Positions 8,062 through 29,825 of a DNA stretch of 38,264 bases are shown here, one piece after another. The position numbers and the translations under genes were made by a program. The notes under the pieces were generated by a model. That model ran no database searches and had not been told where the DNA came from. It saw only the letters and a program-made list of their open reading frames with translations. This DNA comes from Candidatus Levybacteria bacterium RIFCSPLOWO2_01_FULL_39_10. GTDB lineage: Bacteria; Patescibacteriota; Microgenomatia; Levybacterales; UBA12049. The stretch's first letter is position 1. Every line of letters starts with the position of its first letter. Where the stretch lies: positions 40,446-78,709 of the forward strand of contig MFOV01000003.1 of NCBI GenBank assembly GCA_001782515.1. Direction: 5' to 3'.

Positions 8062-9690
8062 ATGGCAGTTGAAGCTTTTTCTCAAACAATATCACCCGGC
8101 TCCGACACTTTATCTTTTCCTGAAACAGAACAGACACAAAGATATGCTCTTATAAGCGTTTCTGATAAAACAGGGGTTGTGGGTTTAGCAAAGATAATTG
8201 ATCGTGCGGGATACAGGATCATCTCCACCGGGGGAACTGCCAAGGCGCTTACTGATGACGGCCTTCCAGTAATCCCAATCCAGGAAATAACAGGAACCCC
8301 GGAAAGTTTTGAAGGAAGAATGAAGACAATTAGCTTCCGGATTGAAGGCGGTATTTTATTTGACAGAACAAAGACCTCCCAAGTTAAAGAAGCAGAAAAA
8401 CTCGGGGTTCCTCAAATTGATTTAGTCGTTGCTAATCTTTATCCATTCGAAAAAACTGTTGCAGATCCTAACACTACATATGATGAGGCAACAGAACAAA
8501 TCGATGTTGGAGGACCAACTATGGTAAGATCTGCTGCTAAAAATCATAAAAGCGTAGTGATAATAGTTGATCCAAAAGATTATGACCGGGTTGGGGAAGC
8601 AATAAAAGCGGGAGAAATTGACCCACAGCTGAAAAGAGAGCTCGCGGCAAAAGCATTTGGACATTTATCTTTATATGATTCTCAGATCAGACAATTTCTA
8701 GAAACAGGCGAAGATTTTGCAGAAGAATTAACTCTTCCTGGAAGAAAAACTACAGATCTAAAATATGGAGAAAATCCCCATCTGGCAGCTGCTTTATACC
8801 TTGAACCAAACACAAATTCTCCGATGAGGAAACTTAAAAGAATTGGTGGTGGAAGAGAAAGCTCAGCAACAAATATCACAGATATAAATGCAGGGATTGA
8901 ATCAGTCAGGATATTCAGAGACACCCCCGTGGTAGTTGTAATAAAACATAATACCCCTTCTGGGATCGCTCTCGGAGAAACTGTGGAAGAGGCATTAAAA
9001 AGAGCAGTTGAGGCAGATCCAATTTCAGCATATGGAGGAGTTGTGGTTTCTAATAAGCCTTTAGACATGGATTGTGTTAGGATTCTTGAAAAATTTAGAG
9101 AACAACGGGGACAAATGGATATAATATCTGCACCTTTTATACCGCCAGAAGTTTTAGAAAAACTTATTGATATCAGAAAAAATGTAGGAATTTATACTTT
9201 TGGAGAAATACCTAGGGAAAGGTCACAAAGATTTCAAGTAAAGCCAATCGACGGAGGTTTTGTTTTGCAGGAATGGGATGATGATGAAACCAATATAGCT
9301 GATTGGAAAATCGCAACTAGATCTGCGCCTACCCGCAAACAACTTGAGCTTATGAGGTTTGGCTGGGACGCGGCAAGAAGAATGAAATCAAACACTATTG
9401 TAGCTGTTGATAAAGATATTCCTATGACTCGGGGAATTGGAACCGGTCAAACATCTCGCATTGCTTCCGTTGAAATCGCCCTTGCACAGGCGGGAGGAAA
9501 TGCAATTGGAAGTATTTTAATAAGTGACAGTTTTTTCCCTTTTGGGGATAGCGTAAAACTCGCTAGGGACGCTGGGGTTGGCGCTATTCTTCAGCAAGGA
9601 GGATCTAAACGCGATAATGATTCAATTGAAGTAGCAAATGAAGCAGGAATTCCTATGGTTTTTACCGGTAGAAGAGCCTTTTGGCATTAG
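8062..9690 (+). CDS. purH: Bifunctional AICAR transformylase / IMP cyclohydrolase
   Basis: 542 aa. MGS-like domain (ALISVSDKTG, STGGTAK), KYGENPH, and C-terminal ILQQGGSKRD...VFTGRRAFWH. Confidence 0.95.
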   Translation: MAVEAFSQTISPGSDTLSFPETEQTQRYALISVSDKTGVVGLAKIIDRAGYRIISTGGTAKALTDDGLPVIPIQEITGTPESFEGRMKTISFRIEGGILFDRTKTSQVKEAEKLGVPQIDLVVANLYPFEKTVADPNTTYDEATEQIDVGGPTMVRSAAKNHKSVVIIVDPKDYDRVGEAIKAGEIDPQLKRELAAKAFGHLSLYDSQIRQFLETGEDFAEELTLPGRKTTDLKYGENPHLAAALYLEPNTNSPMRKLKRIGGGRESSATNITDINAGIESVRIFRDTPVVVVIKHNTPSGIALGETVEEALKRAVEADPISAYGGVVVSNKPLDMDCVRILEKFREQRGQMDIISAPFIPPEVLEKLIDIRKNVGIYTFGEIPRERSQRFQVKPIDGGFVLQEWDDDETNIADWKIATRSAPTRKQLELMRFGWDAARRMKSNTIVAVDKDIPMTRGIGTGQTSRIASVEIALAQAGGNAIGSILISDSFFPFGDSVKLARDAGVGAILQQGGSKRDNDSIEVANEAGIPMVFTGRRAFWH

Positions 9691-15716: not shown

Positions 15717-15741
15717 TTGAATATCTTCAAACAGACCTTGT

Positions 15742-15807
15742 CCCGCATAAGCGCCCTTTGGGAGCGCGAGGCTGTAAGCCTCCGGCACAAAGTAAGCTCT
15801 GTGCGGG
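15742..15807. repeat. About 65-nt nested hairpin (unit A1), a paralogue of the core of module copy A
   Basis: Outer stem CCCGCA/TGCGGG, middle stem CTTTG/CAAAG, apical GAGGC-TGTAA-GCCTC. GC-rich in an AT-rich spacer. Confidence 0.7.
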
Positions 15808-15808
15808 A

Positions 15809-15835
15809 TTAGCAGTAATATATCACGTCTGCTAA
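15809..15835 (-). promoter_or_regulatory. CIRCE-like HrcA operator of the hrcA-grpE-dnaK-dnaJ operon
   Basis: Minus strand TTAGCAGAC-N9-TACTGCTAA, against the canonical TTAGCACTC-N9-GAGTGCTAA (7 of 9 matches per arm, correct 9-nt spacer). Confidence 0.7.
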
Positions 15836-15845
15836 TTCATGTCAA
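15817..15845 (-). promoter_or_regulatory. hrcA operon promoter overlapping CIRCE
   Basis: Minus strand TTGACA (15845..15840)-17 nt-TATATT (15822..15817). The -10 box lies in the CIRCE spacer. Confidence 0.6.
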
Positions 15846-15949
15846 GGAGGAAGATACCGTCTGGTATCTTCCGACGATGACCCCGTATAAACGCTCTTGC
15901 GACGCGAGGATGTAAACCTCGGGAGCAAGGAAGTTTATATGGGGTCAAG
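15841..15949 (+). repeat. Copy A of the structured intergenic module
   Basis: GTCAAGGAGGAAG start. P1 GGAAGATACC-GTCT-GGTATCTTCC. Linker CGACGATGA. P2 GACCCCGTATAAAC/GTTTATATGGGGTC enclosing CTTGC-GACG-CGAGG-ATGTAAA-CCTCG-GGA-GCAAG. Ends GGGGTCAAG. Confidence 0.8.
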
Positions 15950-15959
15950 CTCAAAACAA

Positions 15960-15968
15960 TGCTATACT
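15960..15968 (+). promoter_or_regulatory. Extended -10 element in front of ORF 15976
   Basis: TGcTATACT, ending 7 nt before the ATG, with no SD. Confidence 0.4.
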
Positions 15969-15975
15969 AATTTTC

Positions 15976-16356
15976 ATGGAGAAGAAAAGAACAAGACTTC
16001 GCCCTATCTCAAGAAAAAGACATAACTATTTTTATCTTCTTACAGCAATATTAACTTTGATATTGTCTGGCTATATTTTATTTAACTTTTCTCCCCAATC
16101 AGCGTTTGAAATTTCGGAACTCGGAAATTTTACGATTAAGATTCCTTTAATTTTAATTTTTCTATTTTCCTTCTCAATCTTTATCTACTCTTTAACTACT
16201 TTTCTATTTTTCAGAAAAACTCAAGGGGTAATTTTTATTGCTTTTATTGATTCATATATCATAATGAGGCTTGCAGGTCTAACTCACTGGATATTTTTGG
16301 TTTTGGTAATTGCACTCTTTGTAACTGTAGAACTTTTTATACTTAAGAAAAAATAA
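15976..16356 (+). CDS. Small membrane protein of unknown function
   Basis: 126 aa. Basic N-terminus (KKRTRLRPISRKRH) followed by about four hydrophobic helices. Confidence 0.5.
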   Translation: MEKKRTRLRPISRKRHNYFYLLTAILTLILSGYILFNFSPQSAFEISELGNFTIKIPLILIFLFSFSIFIYSLTTFLFFRKTQGVIFIAFIDSYIIMRLAGLTHWIFLVLVIALFVTVELFILKKK

Positions 16357-17980: not shown

Positions 17981-17989
17981 TGTTATAAT
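17981..17989 (+). promoter_or_regulatory. Extended -10 promoter of metG
   Basis: TGtTATAAT, about 85 nt upstream of the metG ATG. Confidence 0.5.
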
Positions 17990-17995
17990 TACCGT

Positions 17996-18073
17996 GTCCT
18001 CAGAGGCAATGCTCCTTGAGCCGTGTTCGAACAGAACTGAAAAGGCGAAAGGTAAATGCCGGAGGAAGCTGTT
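17996..18073 (+). promoter_or_regulatory. Structured metG leader containing a partial copy of the module 3' half
   Basis: 18010..18060 aligns with 20455..20508 of copy B (roughly 80% identical by eye). The leader ends in SD GGAGGAAG (18061..18068). Confidence 0.5.
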
Positions 18074-19531
18074 ATGAACAAATTTTATATTTCAACACCA
18101 ATTTATTATATAAATGATGTTCCGCATATTGGACATGCGTACACTACTGTTGCGGCGGATGTTATTGCAAGATATTTCAAAGAAAAGTTGGGGGATGAAA
18201 ATATATTTTTCTTAACCGGAACGGATGAGCATGGCGCAAAAGTATCATCTGCGGCAAAGGAGGCTGGAAAAGAACCTCTTGAATTTGCAAATTCCATTGT
18301 TCCCCAGTTCGAATCCGCTTGGGAATTATTAAACATTAACTATTCTTATTTTTTCAGAACTACTGATCCGCGACATGAAAAAATTGTAGGCGTAATACTG
18401 CAAAAAATTTATGATAAAGGTTTTATTTATGAAGGAATTTATGAAGGACTTTACTGCGAAGGATGCGAAAAATTTCTGACAGAAGAAGATCTTGAAAGTG
18501 GAAAGTGTCCCCTTCATCCGAACAAAACCCCAGTCCGCCAGAAAGAAAAAAACTATTTTTTCAAATTATCACAGTTTAGGCAAGATTTAATTCGCTTGTT
18601 TGAAACAGAAGAAGTCAAAATTCTGCCAGAAAGCCGTAAAAATGAAATACTTGGAAAGCTAAAATCTGAGGACCTGAAAGACATTGCAATCTCCCGTGAG
18701 GAAGTCAGCTGGGGAATTCCTATTCCATGGGATAACACGCAAACCATTTATGTTTGGGTAGAAGCATTGTTTAACTATTACACGGCTACTCAATTTTTAG
18801 AAGGCAAACAAAAATTCTGGCCGGCGGATATTCACCTTATGGGTAAAGATATTTTGTGGTTTCACACAGTAATATGGTATGCGCTTTTAAAAGCTGCCGA
18901 ACTTGATTTGCCAAAAAAAGTATTTGCTCACGGATTTTTTACGATAAACGGCGAAAAAATGTCAAAGTCCGCAGGTAATGTGATTGCGCCAAAGGAATTA
19001 GTGGACAAATTCGGGGCAGATGCAACTCGTTATCTTTTACTTTCCCAATTTCCTTTTGGAAGTGACGGAGATTTTTCAATTGAAAAGCTTACCCAAAGCT
19101 ACAATGCAAATCTGGCAAACGGACTGGGGAATTTAGTTTCGCGTATTGCGAAAATTGCTGAATCAAGTAATTTCGGAAACGAGGTTAAAATTCAAGATTT
19201 TAAAGAACTAAGTAATGTTTTTCTGCTTACTGATGAAGATAAATCTTTGAGTGATAAAATAGAGAACTTCACATTACTTGAAGGAATTGAATATATACAA
19301 AACTTAATTAACAGAATAAATCAGATATTTGATCAGCATAAACCTTGGGAATTAATAAAATCAGACCAAACAAATGAATTGGATAGTCTATTATCTGAGT
19401 GTATTAGAAGTATCTTAGAAATTTCTGTATTATTACGACCGTTCATGCCCAAAACTGCAGAGATGATAGAAAAACAATTTAAAGGTCCAAAAATTAAATT
19501 ACTATCTCCGCTTTTCCCGCGAATAAAATAA
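18074..19531 (+). CDS. metG: Methionyl-tRNA synthetase
   Basis: HIGH motif (PHIGHAYT), KMSKS motif, zinc knuckle CEGCEKF...CPLH. Start placed at 18074 because SD GGAGGAAG lies 5 nt upstream. The track ORF begins at 18056. Confidence 0.93.
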   Translation: MNKFYISTPIYYINDVPHIGHAYTTVAADVIARYFKEKLGDENIFFLTGTDEHGAKVSSAAKEAGKEPLEFANSIVPQFESAWELLNINYSYFFRTTDPRHEKIVGVILQKIYDKGFIYEGIYEGLYCEGCEKFLTEEDLESGKCPLHPNKTPVRQKEKNYFFKLSQFRQDLIRLFETEEVKILPESRKNEILGKLKSEDLKDIAISREEVSWGIPIPWDNTQTIYVWVEALFNYYTATQFLEGKQKFWPADIHLMGKDILWFHTVIWYALLKAAELDLPKKVFAHGFFTINGEKMSKSAGNVIAPKELVDKFGADATRYLLLSQFPFGSDGDFSIEKLTQSYNANLANGLGNLVSRIAKIAESSNFGNEVKIQDFKELSNVFLLTDEDKSLSDKIENFTLLEGIEYIQNLINRINQIFDQHKPWELIKSDQTNELDSLLSECIRSILEISVLLRPFMPKTAEMIEKQFKGPKIKLLSPLFPRIK

Positions 19532-20212: not shown

Positions 20213-20371
20213 TTATGGGGCAACTGCTCCTAAAACTTGCTGGCCTGTTTCTGAGAACATTAAGAATCCGCCGATTATAACTCCGATTACTCCTGCGAGA
20301 AGTGAAAACATAACTACTCCCATTTCATTTTGCTTTGTATGAAGTTTGAAACTTTTATGTTTTTTAGCCAT
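20213..20371 (-). CDS. 52-aa single-TM protein, below the ORF-track size cutoff
   Basis: MAKKHKSFKLHTKQNEMGVVMFSLLAGVIGVIIGGFLMFSETGQQVLGAVAP. A candidate promoter sits directly upstream. Confidence 0.35.
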   Translation of the reverse strand: MAKKHKSFKLHTKQNEMGVVMFSLLAGVIGVIIGGFLMFSETGQQVLGAVAP

Positions 20372-20378
20372 CAATATA

Positions 20379-20407
20379 TTTATGACTCAAACTTGGAAAT
20401 TTGTCAA
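20379..20407 (-). promoter_or_regulatory. Candidate promoter of the 52-aa ORF
   Basis: Minus strand TTGACA (20407..20402)-17 nt-CATAAA, then 7 nt to the ATG. The -35 box is the left edge of module copy B. Confidence 0.35.
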
Positions 20408-20518
20408 GGAGGAAGGTACCAGACGGTACTTTCCGACGAAGACCCGCCGATAATCGCTCCGTGAGCCGTATTCGAATAGAATGGAATAGGCGAACGGTAA
20501 GATATGGCTTGGGTCAAG
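20403..20518 (+). repeat. Copy B of the structured intergenic module
   Basis: GTCAAGGAGGAAG start. P1 GGAAGGTACC-AGAC-GGTACTTTCC. Linker CGACGAAGA. P2 CCCGCC...GGCTTGGG. Core CCGT-ATTC-GAATA-GAAT-GGAATAGGCGA-ACGG. Ends GGGTCAAG. Confidence 0.8.
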
Positions 20519-20527
20519 AGAAAAATA

Positions 20528-20533
20528 TATAAT
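20528..20533 (+). promoter_or_regulatory. -10 box in front of tatD
   Basis: TATAAT ending 7 nt before the ATG at 20541. No SD and no clear -35 box. Confidence 0.35.
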
Positions 20534-20540
20534 TAAAGCT

Positions 20541-21353
20541 ATGATCGATGTTCACTGCCATTTAAACTTTCATGCATTTAGAAAGGACTTTAATGAAGTG
20601 ATAAAAAATGCCAAAGATAATGGAGTCAATAAGATTATAAACGTAGGAACATCTATTGAAACAAGTCTGAGTGCTGTTGAGCTTGCTGAAAAATACGAAA
20701 ATTTATATGCAATCGTAGGTGTGCATCCTCACCACGCTGACAAACTTATCAGAGGCTGGGAAAAAGAGATTGAGAGAATTGCAAAGTCCTCAAAAAAAAT
20801 TGTGGGAATTGGAGAAATTGGCCTCGATTACTATTCATATAAGTCGAATGGAATTGTCGAACCAAAAATTCAGAAAGAAGTGTTCATTAAACAGATTGAA
20901 ATCGCGAACAAATTAAAACTTCCCCTGCAAATCCACAACCGACATGCAGGAGAGGACATTCTCAACATCCTCAATAGTCAATGGTCAAATGTCAATTGTC
21001 AGCCCCCCGGCATGTTTCACTGCATGTCAGGAGATGTTAATTTTCTTAAAAAAGTACTGGATTTAGGGTTTTATGTTGGTTTTGACGGGAATATTACATA
21101 CGAAGGTATTCCCAAGGGAGAAAATACTCCCCTTCCTGAACTTGTTAAAAATGCGCCAATTGATCGAATTGTTACAGAAACTGATGCGCCTTTTCTAACT
21201 CCCCAGCCTTACCGCGGTAGTCGCAACATTCCTTCCTATGTTATAATTACAGCAACCGAAATAGCCAAAATTAAGGGATTGGATTTGTCTGTCGTAGAAG
21301 CACAAACCACCGAAAACGCTAAGAATTTATTCAAACTAAACGCTAGTGGCTAA
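20541..21353 (+). CDS. tatD: TatD-family metal-dependent hydrolase/DNase
   Basis: 270 aa. Motifs HCHLNF, GEIGLDY, HNRHA and TETDAPF. Confidence 0.9.
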   Translation: MIDVHCHLNFHAFRKDFNEVIKNAKDNGVNKIINVGTSIETSLSAVELAEKYENLYAIVGVHPHHADKLIRGWEKEIERIAKSSKKIVGIGEIGLDYYSYKSNGIVEPKIQKEVFIKQIEIANKLKLPLQIHNRHAGEDILNILNSQWSNVNCQPPGMFHCMSGDVNFLKKVLDLGFYVGFDGNITYEGIPKGENTPLPELVKNAPIDRIVTETDAPFLTPQPYRGSRNIPSYVIITATEIAKIKGLDLSVVEAQTTENAKNLFKLNASG

Positions 21354-29497: not shown

Positions 29498-29519
29498 AAG
29501 TCAAAATTGATTTAAAAAA

Positions 29520-29597
29520 CCTGCCTGCTCGCCTCGATTCGGCGAAGCGGGCCGGCAGGCGGGCCTGCCCGCAAAGCGGGCTTGCATTGCAGGCGGG
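29520..29597. repeat. GC-rich cluster of nested hairpins in the groES leader
   Basis: CCTGCC/GGCAGG enclosing GCTCGCC-TCGATTC-GGCGAAGC, then GCCTGC/GCAGGC enclosing CCGC-AAA-GCGG. Shares GCCTGCCCGC with the insertion in module copy C. Confidence 0.65.
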
Positions 29598-29623
29598 TAT
29601 CAGTCAGATATTTTGTCTGCTAA
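29597..29623 (-). promoter_or_regulatory. CIRCE-like HrcA operator of groES-groEL
   Basis: Minus strand TTAGCAGAC-N9-GACTGATAC. The left arm is identical to the hrcA copy. The right arm matches the consensus at 6 of 9 positions. Confidence 0.55.
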
Positions 29624-29652
29624 TTTATACACCAAAAATTAAAAAGTGTCAA
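29624..29652 (-). promoter_or_regulatory. groES-groEL promoter
   Basis: Minus strand TTGACA (29652..29647)-17 nt-TATAAA (29629..29624), directly abutting CIRCE. Confidence 0.6.
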
Positions 29653-29781
29653 GGAGGAAGGTGCCAGACGGTACCTTGCGACGAAAACCCGCCAATAATC
29701 ACACCGTGCCTGCCCGCCTCTGAAGAGAACCGTATTCGAATAGAATGGAGCAGGCGAACGGCAAGATATGGCTGGGTCAAG
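29648..29781 (+). repeat. Copy C of the structured intergenic module
   Basis: About 90% identical to copy B outside a GC-rich insertion of about 20 nt (CCTGCCCGCCTCTGAAGAGA). P1 GGAAGGTGCC-AGAC-GGTACCTTGC. Confidence 0.8.
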
Positions 29782-29797
29782 ACCTTTTCATTTAATC

Positions 29798-29825
29798 TTG
29801 ACACCTTAACTCGTATTACTATACT
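29798..29825 (+). promoter_or_regulatory. Candidate promoter of the cohesin-like/PKD gene
   Basis: TTGACA-16 nt-TATACT, ending 11 nt before the TTG start at 29837. Confidence 0.5.

Follow-up and report, generated by a model that had tools for sequence, protein, structure and literature searches.

A probable small, modular hairpin insertion element adjoining the -35 boxes of heat-shock and other promoters in a Candidatus Levybacteria genome

The window analysed here, a stretch of 38,264 nucleotides from Candidatus Levybacteria bacterium RIFCSPLOWO2_01_FULL_39_10, carries three + strand copies (A, B and C; 109-134 nt) of a structured intergenic module, at the coordinates given for them in the initial annotation. 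Pfam matches agreed with the gene context proposed there (hrcA operon, 52-aa ORF and groES-groEL): hrcA-grpE-dnaK lies beside copy A, a TatD gene follows copy B, and groES-groEL lies beside copy C. The total of three copies was too low, as BLAST and covariance models found two partial copies (D and E) that had been missed. The copies and the host promoters that adjoin them are:

15841..15949, + strand: copy A (A-type); left GTCAAG 15841-15846, right GTCAAG 15944-15949
Within copy A, + strand: P1 15849-15872 (10-bp perfect stem, loop GTCT); linker CGACGAT; P2 15879-15946
20403..20518, + strand: copy B (B-type); left GTCAAG 20403-20408, right GTCAAG 20513-20518
Within copy B, + strand: P1 20411-20434 (loop AGAC); P2 20441-20515
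29648..29781, + strand: copy C (B-type, somewhat decayed); left GTCAAG 29648-29653, right GTCAAG 29776-29781
Within copy C, + strand: P1 29656-29679; P2 29686-29778; 19-nt insertion 29708-29726
17995..18071, + strand: copy D, partial (B-type P2 core, without P1 and without GTCAAG ends)
15735..15815, + strand: copy E, partial (A-type P2 module, without P1 and without GTCAAG flanks)
15809..15845, - strand: host hrcA promoter and operator; -35 box TTGACA from 15845 to 15840, -10 box TATATT from 15822 to 15817
15809-15835: CIRCE-like inverted repeat at hrcA, TTAGCAG-N13-CTGCTAA, overlapping the -10 box
20402..20407, - strand: host -35 box (TTGACA) of the conserved 52-aa membrane-peptide gene, identified by eye
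29647..29652, - strand: host -35 box for groES-groEL (promoter TTGACA-17-TATAAA), with a degenerate CIRCE-like repeat after it

The likeness between the copies was as first described: the insertion in C aside, B and C agree at about 90% of positions (11 mismatches plus the 19-nt insertion), and A has the first ~45 nt and the 3' end (the last ~10 nt) in common with them and a different core. The flanks of B and C are unrelated. For the 5' motif GTCAAGGAGGAAGNTNCC, 0.31 occurrences would be expected by chance; there are three, a count reached in 0 of 100 shuffles. Copy E contains a direct repeat (15765-15790) of a stretch of copy A (15903-15928), 81% identical. Copy D scored 73 bits under covariance model R2 and copy E 68.8 bits under model R3, each being among the four sequences from which the respective model was built. 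Three covariance models, one each for the P1 module, the A-type P2 and the B-type P2, were run over 218 kb (the window, 10 kb past each of its ends and the loci of relatives), and they revealed no copies there beyond these few promoter and leader sites; in this genome, five copies or partial copies lie within ~58 kb, all of them at promoters or leaders. A scan of a genome collection returned one match, attributable to chance, and scans of viral collections returned no true matches. The scan of a metagenome collection, whose recall was incomplete (it missed L002, a JGI contig already known to carry copies), returned one true copy (contig L014, same organism) and eight chance matches. Searches of the literature for such elements in these phyla yielded nothing relevant.

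Full copies are built in a fixed order: GTCAAG, GAGG, the P1 hairpin, CGACGAAG, the long P2 stem and (GTC)AAG, with only GA (2 nt) between GTCAAG and the foot of P1, and with the right GTCAAG overlapping the foot of P2. P1, a near-perfect 24-nt palindrome, pairs into a perfect 10-bp stem capped by a 4-nt loop, and P2 forms a multi-helix stem of 70-93 nt; there is no sequence similarity between the two. No terminal inverted repeats are present (the left end, GTCAAGGAGGAAGG, is unrelated to the reverse complement of the right end, CTTGACCCAAGCC). The two parts are separable, copies D and E being P2-only copies. The existence of a repeated structured module with P1 and P2 was borne out by RNA folding far beyond shuffles: the + strands of copies A, B and C reached -60.6, -49.6 and -50.1 kcal/mol (z = -9.3, -6.8 and -4.4), and the - strands folded more weakly (-50.3, -37.5 and -45.8 kcal/mol). 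With DNA parameters the + strand fold was the better one in four of the five copies, in line with the preference for the + strand that had been proposed. GC skew tracked the orientation of the genes and gave no information on the replication strand.

At least two subtypes of P2 exist (A-type and B-type), with one architecture: CGAAGACCC, an outer stem, a GCY/UAA internal loop, a helix of 4-5 bp, tandem G-A pairs, an inner helix, a variable tip and GGGTCAAG. The unpaired bases of the GCY/UAA loop, the tandem G-A pairs and the GAAYA tip loop are conserved. The compensatory changes that had been claimed to keep the stems are visible in the P2 alignments of both subtypes, which comprise only four sequences each and were fitted to the model: 92.7% of the cells were paired in the A-type (6 pairs changed on both sides; covariation 0.403, shuffled mean 0.240, reached by 0 of 500 shuffles) and likewise 92.7% in the B-type (10 pairs changed on both sides; 0.451, shuffled mean 0.169, reached by 0 of 500), and controls with slid partners gave covariation of at most 0.13 in both. 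Copy D keeps the fold through a compensatory change (CCGU/ACGG to CCUU/AAGG), with a GUUC/GAAC hairpin. The earlier statement that all one-sided changes give G-T pairs was too broad, since the changes in copy C include a G-G mismatch (P1) and two A-C mismatches (P2). The reported flip of the P1 loop was exact: GTCT in A is the reverse complement of AGAC in B and C, and the copy at the A site of relative L011 carries the loop AGAC on an A-type stem, so that the flip also separates copies at one site. The exactness of this reversal points to an inversion of the hairpin at the DNA level.

Copies A, B and C stand upstream of the -35 box of a minus-strand gene and of the promoter of a + strand gene, as expected from the claim that the module lies between divergent promoters; the claim did not extend to D and E, which are inside 5' leaders. 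The placement of A, B and C follows from the insertion target itself, the GTCAAG of the host -35 box. Of the three minus-strand -35 boxes proposed, only that of hrcA passed a consensus scan (TTGACA-17-TATATT, 11 of 12 positions), and the other two were identified by eye (TTGACA-17-TATAAA and TTGACA-17-CATAAA). Three of the four intergenic CTTGACA sites in the window are occupied. On the right-hand side, copy C does not stop just short of a + strand -10 box, as had been written, and ends 16 nt before a -35 box (TTGACA-16-TATACT). The divergent promoters of the groES locus have the same 11-mer around their -35 boxes in opposite orientations (AAAGTGTCAAG at 29643-29653 and CTTGACACCTT at 29797-29807), and the element is only at the left one.

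The + strand genes after A and B appear leaderless (a TATAAT-like box, 7 nt, ATG). A TATAAT-like box separated from the ATG by 6-7 nt that lack a Shine-Dalgarno sequence was found for TatD in all the relatives examined (L008, L009, L011, L028 and L030) and for the 126-aa gene; in the window, this layout occurs at 15963-15978 and 20528-20543. A role of the element as a riboswitch or leader of the downstream + strand gene was ruled out by this box after A and B and by a full promoter after C, and a role as the 5' leader of hrcA or groES (A and C) by the consensus promoter and CIRCE-like operator that stand between element and gene. A type I toxin-antitoxin pair with the 52-aa peptide was also rejected, as relatives with an empty site retain the peptide gene and no ORF of this kind accompanies A or C. 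The 52-aa ORF itself (20213-20374, - strand) encodes a hydrophobic peptide, MAKKHKSFKLHTKQNEMGVVMFSLLAGVIGVIIGGFLMFSETGQQVLGAVAP, with no Pfam match; it is probably a real small membrane protein, because most relatives have a called gene of 51-57 aa in this position.

The canonical CIRCE element is TTAGCACTC-N9-GAGTGCTAA. Both heat-shock operators of the window are variant CIRCE elements, unlike the canonical one; that of groES (29595-29625) is a degenerate copy, TATCAGTCAGATATTTTGTCTGCTAA, and a second TTAGCAG half-site lies deeper in the hrcA leader (~15703). The groES 5' leader (29515-29600) consists of GC-rich nested hairpins (-53.7 kcal/mol, z = -4.5), and contig L031 has one simple hairpin there (CCTGCCTGCC/GGCAGGCGGG). 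A 14-nt piece of this leader, TGCCTGCTCGCCTC (hairpin segment 29522-29535), recurs with 13 of 14 nt in copy C (29707-29720) as part of its 19-nt insertion; because of this recurrence, a second kind of small GC-rich hairpin unit also seems to be spreading locally.

Copy D is situated in the 5' leader of an aminoacyl-tRNA synthetase gene (18056-19531) and is preceded by TGTTATAAT and its extended -10 box (-10 at 17984-17989). Its 3' end, GGAGGAAG (window 18050-18058), equals the first bases of the P1 module and is located 8 nt before the ATG of the synthetase; judging from these letters, the remnant may supply the ribosome-binding site of the gene (Shine-Dalgarno-like GGAGG). The synthetase gene appears leaderless in relative L029, and leaders of variable length are found in L008, L009, L011, L028 and the window. 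Copy E is within the 5' leader of hrcA, beside the CIRCE-like operator, and runs antisense to the mRNA of that gene; at its position the relatives have only a short unrelated hairpin.

The relatives were contigs with the same gene order, with HrcA identities of 86% (L028), 84% (L008 and L035), 79% (L009 and L011) and 77% (L029 and L030). L031 belongs to the same genome as L011, and L032 to another Levybacteria genome, fetched through its GroES. The occupation of the three sites was:

A site (hrcA), filled: window (A-type); L011 (A-type, together with a B-type 3' remnant)
A site (hrcA), empty, with a single GTCAAG: L008, L028, L035
A site (hrcA), other content: unrelated hairpins in L029 and L030
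B site (52-aa ORF / TatD), filled: window (B-type); L028 (B-type P2, unrelated P1); L030 (A-type, then the start of a second copy)
B site (52-aa ORF / TatD), empty: L011, L009
B site (52-aa ORF / TatD), other content: a 206-nt variant in L008
C site (groES), filled: window (B-type)
C site (groES), empty: L031, L032

Once the flanks were aligned, every filled site read GTCAAG-element-GTCAAG and every empty site one hexamer; at empty A sites, for example, ...CTGCTAATTnnTGTCAAG is followed directly by the TATACT box of the neighbour. Consequently, the TTGACA -35 box belongs to the host and shows where insertion takes place. This also disposes of the proposal that the TGTCAA edge is a promoter element of the module: the same -35 box, with a single GTCAAG, is kept in the empty sites of the relatives. 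The hrcA promoter and operator region is conserved in relatives with an empty site, and the groES promoter and operator are conserved in L031. Full copies adjoin the 3' side of the host GTCAAG, which reads CTTGAC(A) on the other strand, the -35 hexamer of strong promoters. At the B site of L011, which is empty, the overlapping -35 boxes of both divergent promoters are contained in TTGTCAA; insertion at the B site parts these boxes, each promoter keeping one copy of the hexamer. Owing to the repeat of the hexamer at the right end, both flanking promoters thus keep a -35-like box.

Subtypes are not tied to sites: the window and L011 carry A-type copies at hrcA, and L030 carries one at the non-orthologous TatD/52-aa site. 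Tandem and truncated copies abut at GTCAAG in L011 and L030. Copies at the same site are well conserved: A and its counterpart in L011 are 82.6% identical, B and its counterpart in L028 83.5%; for comparison, hrcA of the window agrees with that of L011 or L028 at 48-50% of third codon positions. The P2 of the L028 copy matches that of B at 61 of 62 positions outside the tip hairpin (by-hand alignment count), unpaired bases included, and its P1 is unrelated; the tip hairpin, unlike the outer P2, has diverged with compensation. Selection on inserted copies would explain this same-site conservation, as would re-occupation of a few target sites from conserved master copies; both fit.

Longer multi-hairpin inserts were found directly after the same GTCAAG in L030 (9651-9844, - strand, 194 nt) and L008 (7464-7669, - strand, 206 nt). 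They differ in sequence, both have an ...AAG-AC... junction before the terminal stem, and one stretch in L030 has GTAG and then a hairpin; they may be further subfamilies. An ORF inside the L028 variant is merely an over-extended TatD start. In L011, a homologue of the 126-aa gene with a GTG start (9290-9655, - strand) had not been called in the assembly, which made the intergenic region look 880 bp long.

Known RNA families did not match the element. Rfam 15 gave no matches over the whole window at the gathering threshold, as anticipated in the initial annotation; permissive searches (E up to 10) of A, B, C and D returned only unrelated eukaryotic miRNA and snoRNA models (E 0.58 or worse), the curated transposon RNA families in Rfam did not match the element, and a tRNA/tmRNA scan found none.

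In its behaviour the element resembles the non-autonomous derivatives of IS200/IS605 (PATEs): it has hairpins near its ends, one favoured strand and no terminal inverted repeats, it adjoins a short fixed motif to which the right end carries a related one, its empty sites are precise, and tandem copies can occur. IS200/IS605 elements leave scarless donor joints, make no target duplication and have a motif adjoining the left end with a matching motif at the right end; gene-less derivatives are known, and guide RNAs of the family are encoded within the elements (PMC10055086). In PATEs, the subterminal hairpins of the two ends are similar and recognised by a single TnpA, and a DNA guide located 5' to the foot of the hairpin pairs with the cleavage motif. 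Here P1 is unlike P2, the 2 nt before P1 are too short to accommodate such a guide, and no sequence complementary to the motif was seen in its place. One GTCAAG in empty and two in filled sites fit a flanking motif plus a motif at the end of the element, and equally a 6-bp duplication. Other differences from PATEs are the long multi-helix P2 stem, the low copy number and a target that overlaps the -35 box of promoters. No Y1/HUH or TnpB domain (Pfam) was detected among the called genes of the fetched loci. By the available tests, namely unlike end hairpins, no room for a guide and no transposase in the fetched loci, the element is not a member of IS200/IS605.

REP/BIME (REPIN) sequences have hairpin units in mosaic modular elements, compensatory change and a likely single-strand mechanism in common with the element. 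REPs are short extragenic imperfect palindromes of 20-40 nt with a GTAG head, present in hundreds of copies and mobilised by RAYT transposases. In contrast, copies A-E have no conserved GTAG head, their units are far longer than 20-40 nt and they are few; REP/BIME sequences lie between convergent genes or inside operons, and the element at promoters and in 5' leaders. The pneumococcal BOX and Neisseria Correia elements are, like the element, small structured intergenic repeats of ~100-150 nt located near promoters, where they can alter expression. BOX elements, too, are assembled from modules (boxA, boxB, boxC); Correia elements have inverted-repeat ends, a TA duplication and promoter boxes of their own. 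The element, unlike Correia, has no inverted-repeat ends and the promoter box is that of the host; a relation in sequence to BOX or Correia would not be expected. Integron attC sites also combine variable sequence with conserved structure and are recombined as a folded, strand-biased single strand; however, the ends of the element are direct GTCAAG repeats and not the inverse RYYYAAC/GTTRRRY, and there is no cassette array or integrase nearby, the neighbours being housekeeping genes. Classical MITEs differ in having inverted-repeat ends and target-site duplications that vary in sequence, and the flanking repeat here is GTCAAG at every site.

The module is a repeated, modular and structured insertion: its empty sites are precise, the hexamer that flanks it is fixed, and its folding favours one strand. 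It is a real and previously undescribed element, best placed among the hairpin-type non-autonomous bacterial repeats. The reading that we favour, with modest confidence, is that of a small (~100-135 nt), non-autonomous, modular and site-specific hairpin insertion element, probably mobilised as single-stranded DNA, and not of a unit carrying a promoter. It is supported by the empty sites, the occurrence of one subtype at non-orthologous sites, the modularity, the tandem and truncated copies, the covarying structure, the strand bias, the loop flip, the lack of an Rfam match and the IS200/IS605-like behaviour (PMC10055086). Such an element would move, or would once have moved, as a folded single + strand; an enzyme of the HUH/Y1 kind, recognising the hairpin, would cut it and rejoin it beside GTCAAG; excision would leave a scarless empty site; and the near-palindromic P1 could invert at the DNA level, which would flip the loop. 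Likely side effects would be that the upstream promoter DNA is pushed ~100 nt away, and that copy D donates its GGAGG to the synthetase gene, leaderless-looking in a relative.

Several observations speak against mobility. No transposase domain is present among the called genes of the fetched loci, the copy number is low without dispersal in the 218 kb, and, P1 being unlike P2 and only 2 nt separating it from GTCAAG, the geometry is not that of IS608. Slippage between the two GTCAAG repeats could also give empty sites, and D and E have no GTCAAG flanks. The ~83% same-site identity and the conserved loops look like selection, unexpected for a dead selfish copy, and fit mobility only if the same few sites were re-occupied from conserved master copies.

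This conservation leads to the foremost alternative, which we consider unlikely: a structured non-coding RNA of the + strand, either an independent small RNA or the guide-RNA-like scaffold of a transposon remnant, with a protein-binding P2 and DNA mobility secondary. The strong covarying structure with its conserved unpaired bases, the tolerance of G-U on the + strand and the excess of same-site conservation over synonymous sites would all suit an RNA, as would copy D, which lies in a true + strand 5' leader and keeps its core by compensatory changes; gene-less IS200/IS605 derivatives and guide RNAs encoded inside the elements of that family provide a precedent (PMC10055086). However, A, B and C are upstream of the promoters on both sides, and the discrete + strand transcript suggested in the initial annotation finds no support in the promoter layout: no promoter or terminator flanks the element, with no promoter-like site for the + strand before it and no terminator after it. 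Copy E is antisense to the sole known transcript across it. The exchange of P1 for unrelated hairpins and the inversion of its loop between copies would be odd for a sequence-specific RNA, Rfam (curated transposon RNA families included) contains no match, and the sites are dispensable in close relatives.

That dispensability also weighs on the idea of a host cis-acting DNA structure, for example a cruciform spacer or insulator between back-to-back promoters, selected for its effect on heat-shock and neighbouring transcription; the element is absent at hrcA in the three closest relatives and at groES in both contigs examined. Such a structure would account for the position beside the -35 boxes of both CIRCE-controlled operons and of one other consensus -35 promoter, for the occupied share of the CTTGACA sites (3/4), for conservation that is high against neutral sites, for the flip of the P1 loop, which fits hairpin or cruciform formation in DNA, and for the different hairpins at the same positions in relatives. 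A symmetric cruciform would not be expected to show the strand asymmetry (G-T pairs and tandem G-A), copies D and E lie elsewhere than between promoters, and near-identical copies at unrelated loci are left unexplained, so that this explanation appears quite improbable. Mobilisation by a DDE transposase as a conventional miniature transposon, with a 6-bp target duplication and a strong preference for GTCAAG, would fit the hexamer directly repeated at both ends and single in empty sites, yet it is very improbable given the absence of terminal inverted repeats under any choice of boundaries, a duplicated sequence identical at every site, the strand-biased structure and the modular hairpins.

For the annotation of these genomes, the element accounts for several "long intergenic regions", and the -35 box should not be taken as part of the repeat. 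The pattern of conservation is nearer to that of a functional RNA than to that of dead repeat copies; therefore, a new structured RNA, or a motif recognised in single-stranded DNA, is a further candidate identity for the element. It is a tentative and rather doubtful proposal that the P2 fold is a new functional structured motif, namely a previously undescribed RNA (a guide-RNA-like scaffold or a protein-binding regulator) or the recognition fold of an unknown single-strand recombination system homing to -35 hexamers in bacteria of the candidate phyla radiation; if it were, selection at the level of the host or of the element would explain the ~83% same-site identity despite saturated synonymous sites. 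Genomes of the candidate phyla radiation are small, and mobile DNA is thought to be scarce in them. The -35 hexamer of strong promoters, those of both heat-shock operons included, would be an unusual choice of target for a structured element. Promoters could also readily be rewired by such an element, which would split overlapping back-to-back promoters and leave each of them with a -35-like box.
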